The notes under the pieces: generated by a model
What the model saw: only the letters and a program-made list of their open reading frames with translations
Told to the model about the DNA's origin: nothing
Database searches by the model: none
Part shown: positions 3,627 through 26,048 of the stretch, one piece after another
How positions within the stretch are numbered: the stretch's first letter is position 1
How the letters are laid out: every line of letters starts with the position of its first letter
Program-made: the position numbers and the translations under genes
Assembly (NCBI RefSeq): GCF_041146345.1
Contig: NW_027191413.1
Span: 992,001 to 1,056,000 of the forward strand
Direction of reading: 5' to 3'
DNA from: Neodothiora populina
Lineage: Eukaryota
DNA: 64,000 nt

Positions 3627-5494
3627 ATGTCCTTCTCACTGGCCCCTGATGGCTCGATAATGCAGAGCGTAAGTTTCAGCCCTATTCTTTCTCAACCCCC
3701 CCCCAAAATCCGTGTCGGGCATGGGCATGGCGGCGGCGCATGGCGTAGTAGCATGCATGCCTACGTTCCATCCTGGAGGCGCCCATGCGCCGTCGTCCAT
3801 GTGGTGGTACGCTGGACGAGGAATTATGACACTCTCTCTACGTGTGCATCTAATTCTCACCCGGTAGCTGCTCTATATCCGATCGTAATCGATATCGCGT
3901 GGCAACCGCAAGGGTTTTGTTTCGCAGGCGTCTGTGGAGTGTGCACTGCACGCTGTGCGGTGAAAACAGTCGTTTACTGGGTGCTGATGACAATACGCGA
4001 ATTTAGATGGCGGGGCCACACTCGATGGGTGGTGTACTAGACGCAAGCACCACAGCCAACATGTTGTGCGGCTTAGACGATCTCTTACCTATGGACCTTG
4101 ACCAATATGATGCCTCTCTCGCCGATGCCGCCGCTGTCGCCGCCGCTTCCTCCACTACTTTCGACCCCATGTCTCTTGGACAGGAGAACCGTGCGGACTC
4201 GTCTTATGATAATCTCACCGGTTCGCTCACCCCTACTAATGCCTCAAACACCATGTCCGCCGTCGGTGCCGGCCCTCTGCCCACGGGGTTTGGCATCGCA
4301 CCGCAGAACGGCAATAGTGCCTTGACCGAGTTCACCAAGCGGAGAAATTGGTCACAGCGCATCATCGAGGAGTTGAAAGATTTTTTGCACATTCTCACTC
4401 CTGATGGCCGAATCGTCTATGTTTCGCCGTCGGCACGCACCCTCACCGGCTATGCCCAACAACAGCTCGTCGGCAGATTCATTGGGGAATTCGTGCATCC
4501 CGATGACAGCGGCATCTTCATGCGCGAATTCAACGAGTCCATAGCAAGCGGCAATGCTCTACGATTCTTCTATCGCTTCAAGAAGGAAGATGGCACCTAT
4601 GTCATCTTTGAGTGTGACGGCCATCCGCACATTTCGACCGACATCCATGCCGCCTACAACACCTCCGCGGTGGCTCCGATCTCCACTCTCTGCAAGGGTT
4701 TCTTCATGATGGCAAGGCCCTATCCCACAAAGAACGCGGCTCTGCTGGACTCGTTCTTGGAGCACAAGATGGAGAACGAGCGGCTGATGAAAAGAATCGC
4801 GGACCTGAAGCGAGAAGAAGTCGAGGAAAACGCACAACAAGAGAGACAGTGGCAGGAACACTCTTCCAACACGCCATTGCAACAAGCGCGAGAGGGCGAC
4901 ATGTCCGAAAGCGCCTCGCGTGTGCCCGATTCTCTTATAGACGCCCCTAGCCAAACAGATTATCAGGGTATGCCACCACCTGCCAGACCACCTGGTAATT
5001 CCAAAGCTGCTCTTACAAGGCAAAATCTAGATAGCGTGCTCTCGGCACAACAGCCTGACAGTATCGCAGACAAAATGTCACGCTACGAGGGCTCGAATCA
5101 CCTCGAGACGATCGAAATGCTCACTGGTCTGCGTTACCGCGATGGCGAGCGAAGTCACGGTATCTCTACTGGTGATACTTCGCCTGCCTTGATCCGTGGC
5201 GATGCCGGTATTGCCATCCTTCTGGACCGAGACCGCGATGGTCATCAAAAGGAGAAGAAAAAGAAACTCAAGCTCGCAGACGAGTACGTCTGCGCAGATT
5301 GCGGCACTTTAGACAGCCCTGAATGGAGGAAGGGACCCAAGGGGCCCAAGACTCTGTGCAACGCTTGTGGTCTACGATGGGCGAAGAAGGAAAAGAAGAA
5401 GCACGGCAGCGACAGCATCAACGGTGGGAATTCGCTGCCGGGTGGTATGTCCAAGCCAAGCTTACCACAACAAAGCAGTGGGGACAGTCTGTGA
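3627..5494 (+). CDS. wc-2: White collar-2 type PAS + GATA zinc-finger transcription factor (WC-2/LreB)
   Basis: [40 protein letters not shown] region, [19 protein letters not shown], and GATA finger [32 protein letters not shown]. Probable 14-codon first exon 3627-3668 (donor gtaagt at 3669) spliced in frame to the TAG acceptor at 4004-4006; the start could alternatively be 3660 or 4007. Confidence 0.93.
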
Positions 5495-18234: not shown

Positions 18235-18471
18235 CACATCTCGGTATAAATTCATCTGATAATTAAGCACCTGTATTGTTAGCTAGATTCGCGTCATCGC
18301 GGATGAACCTCGGATTTCATCTTGCAGTGCAGCGCGGCTTTCTTATATTTCCCCACATGAATCTGCTACAGTACCTGTGCTCTTTGATTGTTTTGATCCA
18401 GGTAAGTCAAGACATGCAACGATGCGACTGTTTGAGCGACTCAATTCCATTGCTGACCCTCTTCATAGAAA

Positions 18472-20328
18472 ATGCCTAAGAGGAAGTCGACTGGGGAGGT
18501 AGTGGAGAGGACTCCCAAAAAAGCACCTGTAGACATAGATGCAGATGAACTTGCCGGTACTGCTACACCATCAAAACAGTATCTGGTCGCAGATACTCCA
18601 TCTAAGCAACGCTCCATACTCAAAAACCCGCATAACGGTATTGTCAATGGCGGCGAAACACCAAGATCAGTGAGAAAAGTACTCTTTTCAACCCCTGCCA
18701 GAGCGCTTGAAACGGTAGTGGAGGTTGGGACAGAGTCACCATTAACGGCAGCGCGAAATGCTGACCGATCAGCCCGTAAAAAAAGCTCTAGAAAGCTCTT
18801 CCAGGGTGATGATGCTGGCATTGATGAAGAAGATGACATAGAGGAAGATGTGGCGCGCCAAATCTTAGACACAGATGACGAAGATGAAAGAGAGTCAGAC
18901 GAGCTTGAGCAAGAGCTTGAGCAAGATGCTGCCATTGATGGGCCAATTGCGCCCGATACTCCTTCGACTCATGCAAAACTTCGAGGAAGACCGAAAGGAA
19001 AACGACGTGTCCCATCACCAACGCCTCTTGAACATCTTCCGCCACATGAGCTGTACTTCTTTCAGAATCGTCCTGGCAGTGTCAAAACATCTACCAACTC
19101 ATTCGGCGCTAATGCCATTCTTGACCATGACGAATATAATGCGCAAATAAATGCCTATTCTGATCCACATGAGGAGGACAGGATGATTTTGACGCAGATG
19201 CATGAAGCCTCTTTCGAACAATGGACTTTCGAGCTGGAGCAAGGCTTCAACATATGCCTCTACGGCTATGGCTCCAAACGCGAGCTTCTTCTGGACTTTG
19301 CAGAGTATCTATACGCCAATCCCCTCAACCCCAAGAAACCGTCCAAAATTGTCATTGTCAATGGCTATGATCCCTCCGTCAACCTTCGTGACATATTGAC
19401 ACTCGTATCCACAACACTCTTGGGCCCTGTAGCTGCTCGAAAATTGCCTCTACAGGTCTCTGCACACCTCGACGCACTGCTTGCCTATCTTGCCAGCTCA
19501 ACAACGGAACATTCTGTGCATCTACTCATTCACAGTATCGATGGTCCCGCATTGCGCCGGCATCAACAAATTCTGTCGCGTCTTGCATCCAGTCCATACA
19601 TCACGCTTATTGCGTCAGCCGATACACCGAACTTCCCCCTATTGTGGGACATTTCTCTACGTTCAGCTCTGCGATTCGTGTTTCATGATACGACTACTTA
19701 CGCCCCTTACACTGCAGAGTTCGATGTTGTGGATGAGGTCAACGCACTTCTTGGCCGTAGCGGCCGTCGTGTCGGAGGCAAAGATGGTGTTGCTTATGTC
19801 CTGCGTTCTTTACCGGAGAACGCAAGGAATCTTTTCAGGATACTTGTGGCCGAGCAATTGGCCCTCGCAGATGCCGACAACATGGACATGGGTAGTGCTG
19901 CCTCTTTCACGACCGACATGCAAGGCTTCGGGGATGAGCTCGGAAATGAAGGAGAAGATGATGACGAGGACTTCCTAGGACATGCAGAAGGTCATCATGC
20001 TTTTGACATGGATATCGAGACGGAGGTCCCGGATAGTCCAACCAAACGCCGTGTTCGCAAGGGCCGACCAGCGAAGCGTGATAAGGCAACACCACAGAAG
20101 CAGCAGCAGGTGCAGCTCATGCAGCACCAAGGCGTCGAGTACAGGACTCTGTATCACAAAGCCGTCGAAGAATTCGTTTGCTCGTCGGAAATGTCTTTCC
20201 GCACGCTTTTACGAGAATTTCACGATCATGCAATGCTCGAAAGTCGTAGAGATGCTCAAGGCACCGAAAGACTCAGCGTGCCATTCGCGCGAGATGAGCT
20301 CGAAGAAATATTGAGCGAGCTGGTATAA
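18472..20328 (+). CDS. ORC2: Origin recognition complex subunit 2
   Basis: Single ORF with NADRSARKKS, QWTFELEQGFNICLYGYGSKR, LIHSIDG, FVFHDTTTYAPY and LLREFHDH. Confidence 0.95.
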   Translation: MPKRKSTGEVVERTPKKAPVDIDADELAGTATPSKQYLVADTPSKQRSILKNPHNGIVNGGETPRSVRKVLFSTPARALETVVEVGTESPLTAARNADRSARKKSSRKLFQGDDAGIDEEDDIEEDVARQILDTDDEDERESDELEQELEQDAAIDGPIAPDTPSTHAKLRGRPKGKRRVPSPTPLEHLPPHELYFFQNRPGSVKTSTNSFGANAILDHDEYNAQINAYSDPHEEDRMILTQMHEASFEQWTFELEQGFNICLYGYGSKRELLLDFAEYLYANPLNPKKPSKIVIVNGYDPSVNLRDILTLVSTTLLGPVAARKLPLQVSAHLDALLAYLASSTTEHSVHLLIHSIDGPALRRHQQILSRLASSPYITLIASADTPNFPLLWDISLRSALRFVFHDTTTYAPYTAEFDVVDEVNALLGRSGRRVGGKDGVAYVLRSLPENARNLFRILVAEQLALADADNMDMGSAASFTTDMQGFGDELGNEGEDDDEDFLGHAEGHHAFDMDIETEVPDSPTKRRVRKGRPAKRDKATPQKQQQVQLMQHQGVEYRTLYHKAVEEFVCSSEMSFRTLLREFHDHAMLESRRDAQGTERLSVPFARDELEEILSELV

Positions 20329-20715
20329 CGAGACAACACATGGAGATCAACGGACATGTACACAACTCAGATGCTCTATCCAATCGACGCGCCAGCTATC
20401 TCAGTGCGACGGATGCACAGACCTTCAGCAGGGTCATCCCGGCAAGCATCAAATGAAAATGGTGATCTGCGTGTTACACGCATTCTCTACGTCTCATCCA
20501 GAGCTCCAAAGACGAATGGTATGCTCGTGGACGGTCGCACAGAAATGTCACTCACCTGTAGACCAGGACACAGTGAGCAAAGGCAGCCATCGTGACGATG
20601 CTTAACGTACAGGACCCGAGCCAGCAATATCAAAATATGCATGACTGCCCAACCTAGTCATGAACGAATAATGTTGTATGAGTGTTGCTGATCTTAAGCA
20701 TGGCTTCATAGCGTT

Positions 20716-21504
20716 TCAGTATCCATACCTATTTCCGATGCGTACCTTCGCCTTGTCGCTGGCAGTCACGTTCTCGACACTTGCTCTTGAGTTTGAGTTA
20801 CTACTTCCTTTCCAGTCTTTCGAATATTCATTCCCTACCGAGATATTGGCCTCACCCATCGCCTGAAGCCCCTTGACCATGTGGTCTATATCTTGGTTTA
20901 AGGACGATTGGTTTCGTGTCATCTTTTCCGCCTTCACGAAGTCGCTGTTCTTGCCGTCAAGCTGAGCTCTTTTTCTTGCCTGATTGACATCTGCACGACT
21001 TCCAGTGCTTGGGAACTGACATTCTAGCTGCGCGACTAAAGCCGTAACGTTGGTGCTTAGTTCCTCGACCTCCGATTGCCGTTTCAGAATCGATGAGGCT
21101 GACGTCGAAGCAGTAGCAGTGGTCGGCGTGCTACTATCAGTGGAAGTATGTATCGGCTTGAGTTTGAGATCATCTCTGAGCAATCTTAAAAGCGAAAGCA
21201 GACCGGCCAGCGTCAGCTTCAGTTCGTCTTCGCTCGCCTCCTTGTTTCTCCCCTGGCCCAGTGACTGTTTTGCATCGCGGCTGTGTTCCGTGTGTCTGTC
21301 CATGCCCGTGGCTTCACCCCATCGCGCGAATCGTGTACGAATTCCATCGAGAGATATTCGAGCAGCTGTCGAATTGCCTTCGAACTCGGTTCCGATATCA
21401 ACCGAATCAATGTATGCCCGGCATTTGATATAGGCTTCGGCTATGGTGGGCTGGTGGCCCACTGTAGCAGCCATATCTGAGACGGCTTCCCTGACTATGG
21501 TCAT
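20716..21504 (-). CDS. HET-S/HET-s-like protein: HeLo domain + C-terminal two-repeat HET-s-type prion-forming domain
   Basis: KCRAYIDSVDIGTEF...ISLDGIRTRFARWGEATGM and LVAQLECQFP resemble the HeLo domain of Podospora HET-S (CVACFEYVQLGRHF...LRLDIAKVRLSRWGEAV; FVDELEKAFP, recalled from memory). C-terminal pseudo-repeats are HMVKGLQAMGEANISVGNEY and ASVENVTASDKAKVRIGNRY. Confidence 0.85.
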   Translation of the reverse strand: MTIVREAVSDMAATVGHQPTIAEAYIKCRAYIDSVDIGTEFEGNSTAARISLDGIRTRFARWGEATGMDRHTEHSRDAKQSLGQGRNKEASEDELKLTLAGLLSLLRLLRDDLKLKPIHTSTDSSTPTTATASTSASSILKRQSEVEELSTNVTALVAQLECQFPSTGSRADVNQARKRAQLDGKNSDFVKAEKMTRNQSSLNQDIDHMVKGLQAMGEANISVGNEYSKDWKGSSNSNSRASVENVTASDKAKVRIGNRYGY

Positions 21505-22286
21505 AGCTCTGCCGACTGCAAGATTGAGCTCGCCTTGTGGACAATCTTGGAAAAAGGAGCAAAAAGAGAAGAAGATAATTCCGTTATGCTCCTACTTCGT
21601 GCGCCTAAGAAGGCGACGACATTAAATCAAGTCCGCTGCCTTCATCACCTACAAAAATCACGATGCCACTCGCCCGTCACCTGGTAAACGAGGCTGTCAA
21701 TGATATGCGCTGGCCGACAATGTGGTTCTTATCATGAGGAGTTTGGGTCGCATGCTTAGCGCTAAGCCAAACGGGACCAGTCATTCGGCTTACCACTTCT
21801 CAACGTCGCAATTTGATTAGGCTGGCTTGCATATTACCCCTGCTCAAAGCGAAGCCGTCATAGTGAAGCGACATTGCCTGCCTTATCTCAAGACGAACGC
21901 CTTGTTTTGTTGTGGAGTATTTCAGGACTCGCGCTACACGTGGCCTCAGGCGTCGGAGTTGGGTCTCAATTGTCGCCAGCTTTTCACCTACCTGACATGA
22001 GAACACCAATCTCTCTATCCTAACGATTTTTGACGATTTTTACGAATTAGCCAAAGATTGCTGTATACCCGATCTTCGAACGATGGAGGTTCTGTGGAGT
22101 AAAAGCGACGTTCTTTGCGATTAATTTATTGATCTGTACATTCCAGATTTGCCAGAAACCAGCCGAGCATAATTAGTTCCATCAACACGAAAAAAGCAGA
22201 AAAGAACATCCACAAATCGTTGAACAGCATTTCTAAGCATGTCTCGAATGTACAGGCTACTGCGTGCCTTTGAGCTTCATTGCGGC

Positions 22287-23504
22287 TCATATTGTCCACA
22301 TCTCATGTGAGTCGATGATGACCCCCTTCCTGATGGCAGTTGCAGGAGCACCTCGAAGAGCATCCTGAATGCTTATGATGTCGCGACTAGACTGGTTGAT
22401 CTGGAAGGCCGTCTCGTATAGTTGGTCGAAAAGCGGGTAACATACTGGCCGCAACCTCTTCCTATGGTTCGGGCATACGTTGGTCTACGGCTGGTTAATG
22501 TAGCCACTGAAGCCGAGAATGGACAGACCGATGAGAGCGCCGGATGTGTTGCAGAAACGCAAGTCTGCATCATCAGACCTGTCTGCCTCACAGCTGTACA
22601 ACAGACCAGGAATATTATCTTTCTGTTTCGAGGATTTCTTTCGATATCGCGAAGATGTTGATTGGTCAAGAAGTAGTAGGCCCAAATGATATAAATGTCA
22701 TCGTCGGGATTCTCAAGACGCTGGCGTATCTCTTCCTTGATGAGATCGACTGTCAGGGGAGGAGCGATGGCGAGCTCAAGAGTCAGGGACGCGGGCAATA
22801 TGAAGACTCTGATCTTCCAGACAGCTGCAGTGGCCCTAGCAGCCTCGGCCGATCGAGTCAAAACGTTATCAGTCTCGCCCAAGACATCCGCCGGTCTCGA
22901 TCGTGCTGTGGAATAGTTCGAAGCGAGGTTCTCAGTTGATTGGTTGAGTACCTCTCTTAAAAGGTCGAGAGGTCCGCCGATTATGGCCTGGTCAAGGGAG
23001 GCAAGAGCATCCGCCTGCAAGTGTCTAGCAACATCCAACTCCTGCGTCCGCCGAGGCATCCTAGACCGCGAGCGTGCCACCACGCTAGCCGAGATCAGGG
23101 GCTGTCGGGATGGTGGTGGTTCTCTAGGTGGATATGTCAGGACCGTGAAAGCATGGCAGAGGGGCGATACCAACCTAGCGAGTCTGCGAGCGCTTCTCTC
23201 CTCGGCAATAAGGCCCTGGTCATCATCTTGCCCTCCTTGCCTAGAGCCGTACCAGCCTGCCAGCCCATTTTCCCCAAGAGCTTGACGTGGCAGGATGTGA
23301 TTCTGATCCGGGAGTACTGCATGACAAGGTCAGCCAGATCAGAGGCGCAGGAAACATAGGGGTCGTACCGAATATGAGGTTGACGTTGTATGTGATCCTT
23401 TCATCGCTACCAATGTGCACGGTGGAGTGGTCTCGAGCTTGCACCTCACGCACCGTGTTTTCTTCAGCACGGTGCCGGGCTGGGACGGGGAGAATAGTTT
23501 CCAT
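22287..23504 (-). CDS. Uncharacterised protein with N-terminal HET-s-type amyloid repeat (R0-like) and a putative ubiquitin-like domain
   Basis: Exons 23504-23369, 23316-23175 and 23123 onward join in frame through GT..ctgac..YAG introns. The 3' end is uncertain: stop at 22373 if unspliced, or at 22287 with a 44-nt intron at 22528-22485, optionally plus an in-frame 42-nt intron at 22606-22565. Residues 16-33 are NTVREVQARDHSTVHIGS. 22819-22604 encodes WKIRVFILPASLTLELAIAPPLTVDLIKEEIRQRLENPDDDIYIIWAYYFLTNQHLRDIERNPRNRKIIFLV, a beta-grasp-like pattern. Confidence 0.7.
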
Positions 23505-23925
23505 CGCTTCTATACATGAGAAAGTGTTGTGTTGTGAAAATATTATGGCTGGTGATGCTCGCAAGGTTGCTGTTGATTGAGGTTCTAAGTTGGAGGTGCT
23601 ATGATGAGAGTCCCGGGAGTCGAATGAGCTTAGCGGTAGCCCGTAGCATGCGACTGACTGTACCTGAATCGTGATGATCGATAAGATTGTGGCGCAAACA
23701 TCTACCGAGATATTTCCCCTTCTCGAGTTGGAGACATGTGCGCACTTGTGTATACATCATGAACATTCGAAGCGCTTCCACAATAGCGAAAGGATTTTCA
23801 GGGCACGATCTGCCGTGGATATATCGCTCACGCTTGCTTGCGGACTACGTTGCACGTTCAGGAGGTGAGCGAGGCCGGTAGGACAGATTGCGATGCGACT
23901 AAGGTGTCTACAAAAGCATTTACAA

Positions 23926-26048
23926 TCAGATAGCAGCGCACTCCCTCTCCAACCACTTCAAAGTCTTCTCATCCCCTCCACGGAAATAGCCCTCCGTCTT
24001 CTCGAAAACTTCCTTGTGATAGTCATTGAGCCACTTCTTCTCCGTCTCGCTGAGCAAGGAGACGTCGGTGAGCTTCTTACACATAGGAGTCATGGTGACG
24101 TGCTCGAAGCCCAGATATGGCTTATCGCCGAACTGGAACTTCGTCTTCACTTCGCGGACCATGACGATATTCTCTATCCGGATGCCGAAGCCGCCGTCCT
24201 CGTAGTACCCGGGCTCGTTGGAGATGACGTTGCCGACGCTGAGGGGGACTTCGGAGTATTGCACGCGAGTGCCAATGCCGATGGGACCTTCGTGGACGTT
24301 GAGGTAGGAGCCGACGCCGTGGCCTGTGCCGTGTCTGTAGTCTAGACCTTCCTGCCATAGGAATTGTCGCGCCATGCTGTCTAGAGCGAAGCCTGTGGTG
24401 CCTTTGGGGAAACGGACGTTGTCGAGAGCGATATGGCCTTTTAGCACCAGAGTGTATGCCTTACGTTCCATCTCAGTAGGTTCACCGAAGTGTAATGTCC
24501 GCGTCGTGTCTGTCGTGCCGTCGAAGTATTGTGCGCCCGAGTCGCAAAGGTAGATCGCGTTTGGGTCAATGATGCTGCAGGCGCCGCGCTCGGGCTTGTA
24601 GTGTATCACTGCCGCATTCGCTCCAGTAGAAGAGATGGTGTCGAATGAAAGACCAGCGAAAGATTCGTGTTTGGATCGAATCGCTTCAAGCTTGTCTGCT
24701 GCCTCCACTTCATCAATCTTTGCCTTCTTGTGGATCAGCTCGTACTCCAACCAGGCGAAGAACTCGGAGACGGCGGCACCATCGCGAACATGGCAATCGC
24801 GCATACCCGCCTTCTCAGTCTCGTTTTTGATTGCCTTTGCATCTCCAACAGGAGAGCGAACCTCATCAACACGCTCGGTTCCACCCAGTGCGTGCGAAAG
24901 AGCCCACGAAGCTTTCGATGAAACGAGATACTTCGCAGGAGATGACTTTGTTTTCTCCGAAGCAGCAAGAGCTTCAATATCCGTGAATATTGCCTCGTAT
25001 GGCCTGATGGTCACACCGCCGAGCTGTGCCTTGGCTTGGTCGCTGAGCTTTGATTCATCGATGTAGAGGGTCACTGCTTTGGGGGTGACGACCGCATAGG
25101 AGAAGAACACGGGGTTGTAGGGGATGTCAGTTCCGCGGAGGTTGAATAGCCACGCAATCTCATCTAACATGGATACAACGAAGCCTGCACTTTTCCTCTT
25201 CTCGAGTTCTTTTCGAAGCTCCTCTATCTTCTCGTTGAAGTTCTTGCCGGAATACTTCAGGGGCTGGATGTTGACCTTTTCATTTGGTCTCGCTGGTTTG
25301 TCGGCACCCCATACTGCATCCACAAAGTTATCCTTGACGCCAACGAGATCCTTACCACCCTTGTTCTTGATCTTCTCGGCAAGTTTGCGTGCATCGGCTA
25401 AGAAGCGTCAATTTGGGGAGGTCCCAGGAAAGGTTTGGTTCACATACCAGCAGTTATCGTGGTTGGGTCTACACCGACCACTTTACCACCTTCAGCTTGC
25501 TCGGCAGTCCTGGCTCCAATCAGCATCCTACTTGTTCCCAGATAGGTTCACCCACCAACCATTCTTGCCATGTGGGAACGTCCTGTAATCCCTGTTTGAG
25601 CAGCGTCCAGTTCTCATCGAGTTGCTTAGCTGCCTGGTTGAAGTATCGACCATCTGTTGCCAGTGCTGCTTTCTCCAGTCCAACTACAGCTGTTCCTGCA
25701 GAGCCAGAAAAGCCGCAGATATATTCTTCAATAGTGTTAGCCTGCGATGGTACTGACGGTTGACGGGCGGGAGCGAACCTCTTCTTGCATCGGTCGGCGC
25801 TATGTATTCTGACTGATGGCTGTCCTCAGACGGTACGACTAGGAATGTCAGTCAGCCGTCTGTGACCTTTCCAATCGGATATGCTTACTGAAGATATCTA
25901 CCTTATTGCGCTTCATCAAGTCTCTCAATTGAGACAGACGCTCTGTTGTGTGTACGCGCTCCATTTCGATGGGAAACTTCCGAATTGCTGAAGTATGGAA
26001 GGCTCGGGATGCCCCTTGTCTGGTCAATCTAGAGACACAACGTAGCAT
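23926..26048 (-). CDS. Xaa-Pro aminopeptidase P (M24B; AmpP/FRA1-like)
   Basis: [63 protein letters not shown] and [17 protein letters not shown]. Exons 26048-25889, 25838-25779, 25725-25560, 25509-25448 and 25397-23926. Confidence 0.95.

Follow-up and report, generated by a model that had tools for sequence, protein, structure and literature searches.

In the HET-S/NWD2 system of Podospora anserina and in the HRAM pairs described in PMC3321046 and PMC4518210, a HeLo-type protein ends in two repeats separated by a loop (r1-loop-r2), and the neighboring gene encodes a single matching repeat, r0, at the extreme N terminus of its product. In the texts cited here, fungal amyloid signaling is described as a relay from a nucleotide-binding oligomerization domain (NOD)-like receptor (NLR) to an effector. 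We analyzed two neighboring genes, A and B, in a 64-kb stretch of the Neodothiora populina genome (contig NW_027191413.1, positions 992,001 to 1,056,000; hereafter the window, in whose numbering all coordinates are given). By their sequences, the two form a genuine r0/r1/r2 pair of the HET-s type in which the partner is not an NLR and probably contains a beta-grasp domain. As in HET-S/NWD2, the single repeat stands at the extreme N terminus of the neighbor; unlike NWD2, the gene B product is only 359 amino acids (aa) long and has no NACHT or NB-ARC domain and no WD, ANK, or TPR repeats. Both genes lie on the minus strand; het-s and nwd2, in contrast, are reported to be transcribed divergently.

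The closest described arrangement with a partner lacking a NOD is bacterial. In the Bab/Agp antiphage system of Escherichia coli (bioRxiv 10.1101/2024.11.07.622273), adjacent genes likewise have a common amyloid motif, carried by a small pore-type executor at its C terminus and by a non-NOD partner at its N terminus, and Bab and HET-S are reported to be functionally interchangeable. Bab/Agp sets a bacterial precedent for an amyloid sensor without a NOD. It differs from the pair studied here in its host and in its motif family, BASS11, and also in that Agp is a protein of 1,094 aa with TPR, GreA/B-C, and PIN domains, that is, with clear sensing and oligomerizing parts, of which gene B has none. 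For fungi, a keyword and passage search of open-access text, supplements excluded, found no description of an r0 partner that is not an NLR.

Repeats of gene A and gene B

Gene A is an uninterrupted open reading frame (ORF) of 262 aa at 20716-21504. Its C terminus matches the Pfam family HET-s_218-289 (PF11558) over residues 213 to 261 of the unspliced ORF (E = 9.3e-8; score of 32.4 bits, family threshold of 32.2). The two repeats, recovered by Pfam and by a scan of 18-residue segments, are r1 at residues 208 to 225 (20830-20883; HMVKGLQAMGEANISVGN) and r2 at residues 241 to 258 (20731-20784; ASVENVTASDKAKVRIGN); the loop between them has 15 residues, and in the unspliced reading, RYGY and the stop codon come after r2. 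The original prediction had given gene A these two C-terminal repeats, which are present, and a HeLo domain, which scored just under the Pfam threshold: HeLo (PF14479) gave E = 8.8e-5 and 22.8 bits, where the family requires 23.2, over positions 9 to 109 of the 205 of the profile. The HeLo-like region covers residues 21 to 141 (21082-21444) and is also seen in weak alignments (E = 0.16 to 0.43) to the HET-S/HET-s chains 2wvq and 2wvo of the PDB, in which RTRFARWGEATG of gene A is paired with RLSRWGEAV of HET-S. Residues 1 to 34 are more charged than the portion of HET-S in that alignment.

We calibrated a codon usage score on 13 conserved genes of the window, using windows of 60 codons; in-frame windows scored 0.25 ± 0.11 (n = 222) and off-frame windows −0.23 ± 0.17 (n = 444), with 0.9% of the latter reaching 0.1. 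Gene A scored 0.17 to 0.21 over its full length, has a CT-rich stretch upstream of its ATG, and looks intact; it is a putative, divergent HeLo executor. The public model of this gene, P0005, is 275 aa long and contains an intron of 75 nucleotides (nt) at 20728-20654, directly after r2, which exchanges the RYGY end for 16 other residues and moves the end of the gene to near 20602. The HET-s profile scored 26.9 bits for P0005 versus 32.4 bits for the unspliced ORF, and the sole branch-like site of the putative intron nearly abuts its acceptor. A tail of glycine and aromatic residues is described for HET-s-type domains, and the unspliced end, RYGY, resembles it. The annotated intron may be wrong.

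In gene B, r0 occupies residues 16 to 33 (23406-23459; NTVREVQARDHSTVHIGS; found by Pfam and by the 18-residue scan) and is encoded in exon 1 (23369-23504; 45 codons plus 1 base), which has a codon score of 0.27. The ATG at 23504 is the first of its frame, and 15 residues separate it from r0. A predicted intron of 52 nt follows at 23317-23368 (GTACGA...CTGAC...CAG, with the branch point ~12 nt from its 3′ end), in our reading of the sequence as in the public model; it resembles some short candidate introns that restore the frame at conserved-gene junctions of the same window (58 nt, GTATGT; 53 nt, GTACAT; branch points 11 to 13 nt from the 3′ end). Exon 2 (22373-23316) contributes 313 codons and the stop, again as in the public model. 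The resulting product of 359 aa is identical, letter for letter, to the public N. populina model P0003 and falls within the ~340 to 360 aa originally predicted.

Exon 1 of gene B matched the HET-s_218-289 profile with E = 1.2e-3 at profile positions 44 to 62, the half that corresponds to r2 (E = 6.2e-3 with the full protein), so that a profile search, one of the checks proposed with the original prediction, recovered the motif. We then used BLOSUM62 to score all stop-free 18-mers in the six frames of the 64-kb window (69,378 segments) for similarity to r1 and r2. Apart from these two repeats, r0 was the top scorer, with 54 against 38 for the runner-up. The position pattern that had been proposed for the shared motif was borne out as well, with three matches in the window: r1, r2, and r0. 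A chance resemblance could draw on the score of the lone repeat, 19.3 bits, which is below the family cut-off, as it is for any single repeat. It would have to accommodate, however, a first rank by a wide margin among 69,378 segments at the very N terminus of the adjacent ORF, and an E value that is already corrected for 24,736 families when one family was in question; we regard chance as a very remote explanation of the motif.

The sequence of r0 also has the features of the receptor-side repeats. The HRAM core is described (PMC4518210) as hydrophobic residues at positions 5, 8, 10, 16, and 18, a glycine at position 19, and a loop of 6 to 18 residues. All three repeats keep this core (V, L, A, I, V, and G in r1; V, V, A, V, I, and G in r2), G19 included, and the loop of 15 residues falls within the described range. 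They likewise obey the coupling rule of the same paper, with V8 paired with D12 in r0 and r2 and L8 with G12 in r1. Within gene A, the charges of r1 and r2 are opposite at two corresponding sites, K211/E244 and E218/K251. In receptor-side r0 motifs, charged residues are described as replaced by serine or histidine (PMC4518210), and r0 of gene B follows this trend: K-A-K-V-R of r2 becomes H-S-T-V-H. Counted by eye, r0 shares 7 of 18 residues with r2 and 4 of 18 with r1, and r1 and r2 share 5 of 18; r0 is thus nearer r2 than r1, as reported for canonical HET-s pairs (PMC4518210). Unlike the HRAM pairs, this pair has asparagine at position 3 only in r0 (histidine in r1, alanine in r2), and its HeLo match is partial. 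Since the HRAM core, the coupling, the substitution of serine and histidine for charge, and the closeness to r2 are retained, r0 seems to have evolved as an r0 and not to be a recent copy of r2. A predicted complex of residues 198 to 262 of gene A with residues 1 to 46 of gene B scored 0.02 against a mark of 0.34, in a run without controls.

The body of gene B

A partner of this size without NACHT, NB-ARC, P-loop, WD, ANK, or TPR elements had been proposed from the outset, and the profile searches agree. At E ≤ 10, P0003 matched no Pfam family besides the r0 motif, and NCBIfam and PADLOC returned nothing meaningful for it. No match to NACHT, NB-ARC, WD40, ANK, or TPR was found in 28 of the 90 ORFs of at least 120 aa in the window (the longest nonredundant ones). 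Of the 47 stop-to-stop ORFs of at least 35 aa across 21505-23900, 36 were scanned, and none of them contained an NLR domain; the other 11 comprise 3 that had been scanned earlier, one ORF of 35 aa, and 7 at the aminopeptidase end. A search of all frames across 21505-23900 found no P-loop pattern on the sense strand. The antisense pattern GLVKGGKS (22985-23008, plus strand) lies in an ORF of 132 aa that matches no family and reads as nonsense; we rejected it as chance because four P-loop-like patterns occur in the full window. Because NOD and repeats are absent, gene B is not a member of the NWD2-type NLR family.

Between r0 and residue ~205, the product has a linker of ~150 residues, weakly predicted as helical (predicted local distance difference test [pLDDT], ~30). 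It is followed by a candidate beta-grasp, or ubiquitin-like, region at residues ~205 to 290, of which ~205 to 283 are encoded at 22604-22840 and in which the annotated frame has a normal codon score (0.28 over 22840-22610). A phmmer search of the PDB with residues 205 to 295 returned 28 sequences at E ≤ 10, 25 of them ubiquitin or ubiquitin derived. Single-domain ubiquitin chains gave E values of 0.15 to 1.6 only, the low E values of polyubiquitin being sums over 9 repeats of ~2.5 bits each, and identity to ubiquitin was ~20 to 25% over ~40 to 65 residues. No ubiquitin-clan Pfam profile matched P0003 at E ≤ 10.

Structure predictions pointed the same way. The ESM Atlas model of gene B has a whole-protein pLDDT of 0.43, and structural neighbors of its residues 200 to 295 had template modeling (TM) scores of 0.65 to 0.71; 8 of the 10 entries displayed were ubiquitin, Rad60-SLD, PB1, or Dsc3 clusters. 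AlphaFold 2 (AF2) run without an alignment gave an unusable model of the full-length protein (pLDDT, 30.5), and for residues 196 to 300 it gave a model with a pLDDT of 48 and the order β-β-α-β-α-β, which is that of ubiquitin, Rad60-SLD, PB1, and Dsc3_N. Foldseek found nothing at E ≤ 0.001; its best E value was 0.52, and ubiquitin entries dominated. VIA-align against 48,161 chains reached a best Z score of 4.7, with none at Z ≥ 5; the 50 matches displayed were mostly ubiquitin fold by title (Z = 3.4 to 4.2; root mean square deviation of 2.6 to 3.1 Å over 52 to 57 residues), and the ubiquitin-like (UBL) domains of Dsk2, Rad23, and midnolin were among these weak neighbors. Unlike ubiquitin-like domains, the candidate has no clan Pfam match and no C-terminal di-glycine, and its structural scores are below the usual marks of significance. 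Several weak results that agree with one another nevertheless make a beta-grasp fold in gene B likely. The ubiquitin-like domain originally suggested is thus plausible, although no profile match to it reached significance.

A working trigger or a remnant

The pair can be read as a signaling module in which gene B is a non-NLR trigger of gene A, and we put this reading forward tentatively. Both genes would be expressed, and the gene B transcript would be spliced as predicted. The r1-loop-r2 region of gene A would adopt a beta-solenoid of the HET-s type. Gene B molecules would oligomerize, gathered by their own body or by a partner or ligand bound to them; the gathered r0 segments would stack into a solenoid rung and seed gene A by templating r1 and r2, and the refolded HeLo domain would attack the membrane, so that the pair would kill. 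It is doubtful whether gene B can be called the first fungal amyloid trigger other than a STAND NLR, with the beta-grasp, of ubiquitin or PB1 type, supplying the induced proximity that fires the HeLo executor. If the trigger reading is true, the r0/r1/r2 relay can plug into non-NLR sensors in eukaryotes too. The amyloid relay would then be a portable connector, as Bab/Agp suggests in bacteria, and the pair would offer a very small, tractable system for the minimal event that nucleates a functional prion fold.

A number of observations weigh against a working trigger. According to Daskalov 2015 (PMC4518210), 98 of 155 HeLo-type genes have an adjacent r0 partner, and all 98 partners are NLRs. 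Both genes are orphans in the databases that we searched, and gene B is a lineage-specific protein. A near-length search of 5.8 billion proteins with gene B returned only itself, and in an exhaustive HMMER search among 1.84 billion representatives the only matches were gene B itself and P0004, a tandem-repeat protein whose score was summed over 10 stretches and which we rejected as an artefact. Residues 1 to 60 of gene B, compared with longer proteins, gave 15 candidates, none of which scored, and none of 576 pattern matches in metagenome contigs was confirmed. The near-length search with gene A likewise returned only itself (metagenome contigs: 70 pattern matches, none confirmed). No single test makes the beta-grasp significant, and the HeLo score of gene A, just below threshold, rests on the N-terminal half of the profile. 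At the 5′ end of gene B, an out-of-frame ATG at 23517, 13 nt upstream of the start, opens an upstream ORF of 17 codons (23464-23517, minus strand) that overlaps the start and could lower translation of the r0 frame, unless transcription begins downstream of that ATG. A further donor, GTGCGT at 23453, would splice in phase to the acceptor at 23317 and thereby drop r0.

To these points is added the coding signal of exon 2. The annotated frame scored only 0.11 to 0.14 in the linker (23314-22841) and −0.09 over the last 78 codons (22609-22376), a value at or below which ~2% of true in-frame windows fall. The frame shifted by one base scored 0.16 over the same 78 codons and 0.20 beyond the annotated stop, levels reached by <1% of off-frame windows. 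Guanine-plus-cytosine (GC) fractions at the three codon positions of the tail were 0.44/0.68/0.47 in the annotated frame and 0.48/0.43/0.69 in the shifted frame, compared with 0.57/0.43/0.60 in the training genes, and the purine-any base-pyrimidine (RNY) periodicity agrees with the shifted frame. In this tail (22290-22609), the shifted frame is coding-like, with a TAG at 22487-22485 and a TGA ~80 nt past the annotated stop at 22373; the switch falls at ~22640-22610, directly after the last predicted strand. We found no GT..AG intron of 40 to 300 nt near 22610 that restores the frame. Introns farther downstream, such as one with a GTATGT donor at 22445, were discarded, as they would swap the last 25 to 30 residues only; read from the sequence, a weak 63-nt intron (GTGGCT..CAG) could excise the TAG of the shifted frame. 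The annotated tail stayed open in 188 of 5,000 shuffles. Because the coding periodicity of the last 78 codons lies in the other frame, the tail suggests a frameshift, whether real or caused by an indel in the assembly, or an incorrect model of the 3′ end. If the frameshift is real, this allele has lost an original C-terminal part of about a hundred residues.

Several of these points fit equally a gene B that is a degenerating or chimeric remnant, in which an ancestral r0-NLR lost its NOD and repeats and its 5′ exon now reads into unrelated or young sequence; the module would sense nothing, and gene A would perhaps be drifting too, as its subthreshold HeLo match could indicate. This explanation stays alive because the adjacent partners in the literature are NLRs, because het-s strains are described as having a natural, transposon-inactivated nwd2, with correlated loss of partner function, and because very short proteins with amyloid signaling motifs are suspected pseudogenes (Wojciechowski 2022). 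The orphan body of gene B, its weak linker score, and the TAG in the better-scoring frame of the tail also speak for it. Decay of an NLR had been named as a possible objection to the original prediction, but no relic of a NOD, P-loop, or repeat domain was present in the frames scanned at the locus. Nor did 20300-24000 contain a transposon-like repeat, only five short imperfect inverted pairs, and the start codons of the two genes are only ~2 kb apart. Furthermore, the stop-free frame that holds exon 2 extends over 318 codons, a length reached in none of 2,000 shuffles of 21505-23900; coding statistics are ordinary over exon 1 and over the beta-grasp region, and every core position of r0 is kept. 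A decayed or chimeric remnant, though unlikely taken by itself, is nearly as likely as a working sensor. If gene B is a remnant, it shows module decay in which the partner was lost first and the motif exon was kept, and it calls for caution with motif-based genome scans and with the public gene model. Of the original proposal of a cell death or immune module, the HET-S/NWD2 logic, the non-NLR partner, and the lack of an NLR relic stand. The new class of sensor or adaptor that it invoked is unsubstantiated, given an orphan protein with a 3′ frame conflict, a remnant nearly as likely, and the precedent of Bab/Agp.

The repeat of gene B could also act as a brake or shuttle, capping or coaggregating with the amyloid of gene A while the UBL leads to the proteasome or autophagy, with the true r0-NLR sensor encoded elsewhere in the genome. 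A monomeric single-repeat protein has no evident route to nucleation, which suits such a role. Shuttles of the Rad23/Dsk2 type bind the proteasome through their UBL domains, and the weak structural neighbors of the beta-grasp include this type. Sensors elsewhere in the genome are plausible because 57 of 155 HeLo-type genes have no adjacent NLR (PMC4518210). The beta-grasp assignment is itself weak, however, and the serine and histidine substitutions of r0 fit homotypic stacking and the behavior of a nucleator, so that we consider a brake improbable. Even less probable is a wrong 5′ model, in which r0 is spliced out of the main protein through the donor at 23453, a good one, into a G-patch-like frame. 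After 17 codons of gene B, that splice would enter the other frame of 23316-23140, within a stop-to-stop ORF of 87 aa (23140-23400, minus strand; VKLLGKMGWQAGTALGKEGKMMTRALLPRREALADSLGW) that overlaps the start of exon 2 and matches the Pfam families G-patch (E = 0.0059; score of 16.9 bits, family threshold of 22) and G-patch_2 (E = 0.022). About 0.2 matches of this level are expected by chance among the 36 ORFs scanned. The frame stops at 23137, and its only route back to the rest of gene B is a GTTGGT donor joined to the second of a pair of neighboring AGs. Over 23314-23126, the annotated frame scores 0.11 against 0.03, and its GC fractions at the three codon positions follow the coding pattern. 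The G-patch match is probably a chance curiosity, because 36 ORFs were scanned, its frame closes at 23137, and the same DNA scores higher in the annotated frame; splicing r0 out would also leave the best HET-s motif match of the window unexplained. With these alternatives weighed, gene B as a non-NLR trigger of gene A is the reading that we retain, tentatively.

Genomic surroundings

The pair lies between an ORC2 gene (18469-20325, plus strand) and an M24 aminopeptidase P gene (23929-25407, minus strand). Both family assignments were confirmed, and the original description of two co-oriented, motif-sharing neighbors between these flanks holds. An Rfam search at the locus gave no match. The rest of the window consists of ordinary housekeeping genes (ArgJ, an SNF2/RING helicase, a cation efflux protein, PPPDE-PUL, Ric8, GDA1/CD39, porphobilinogen deaminase, an arrestin-like protein, and a BRCT protein). 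It also contains, at 4007-5491 (plus strand), an ORF with PAS and GATA zinc finger domains, which we take to be of the white-collar type.

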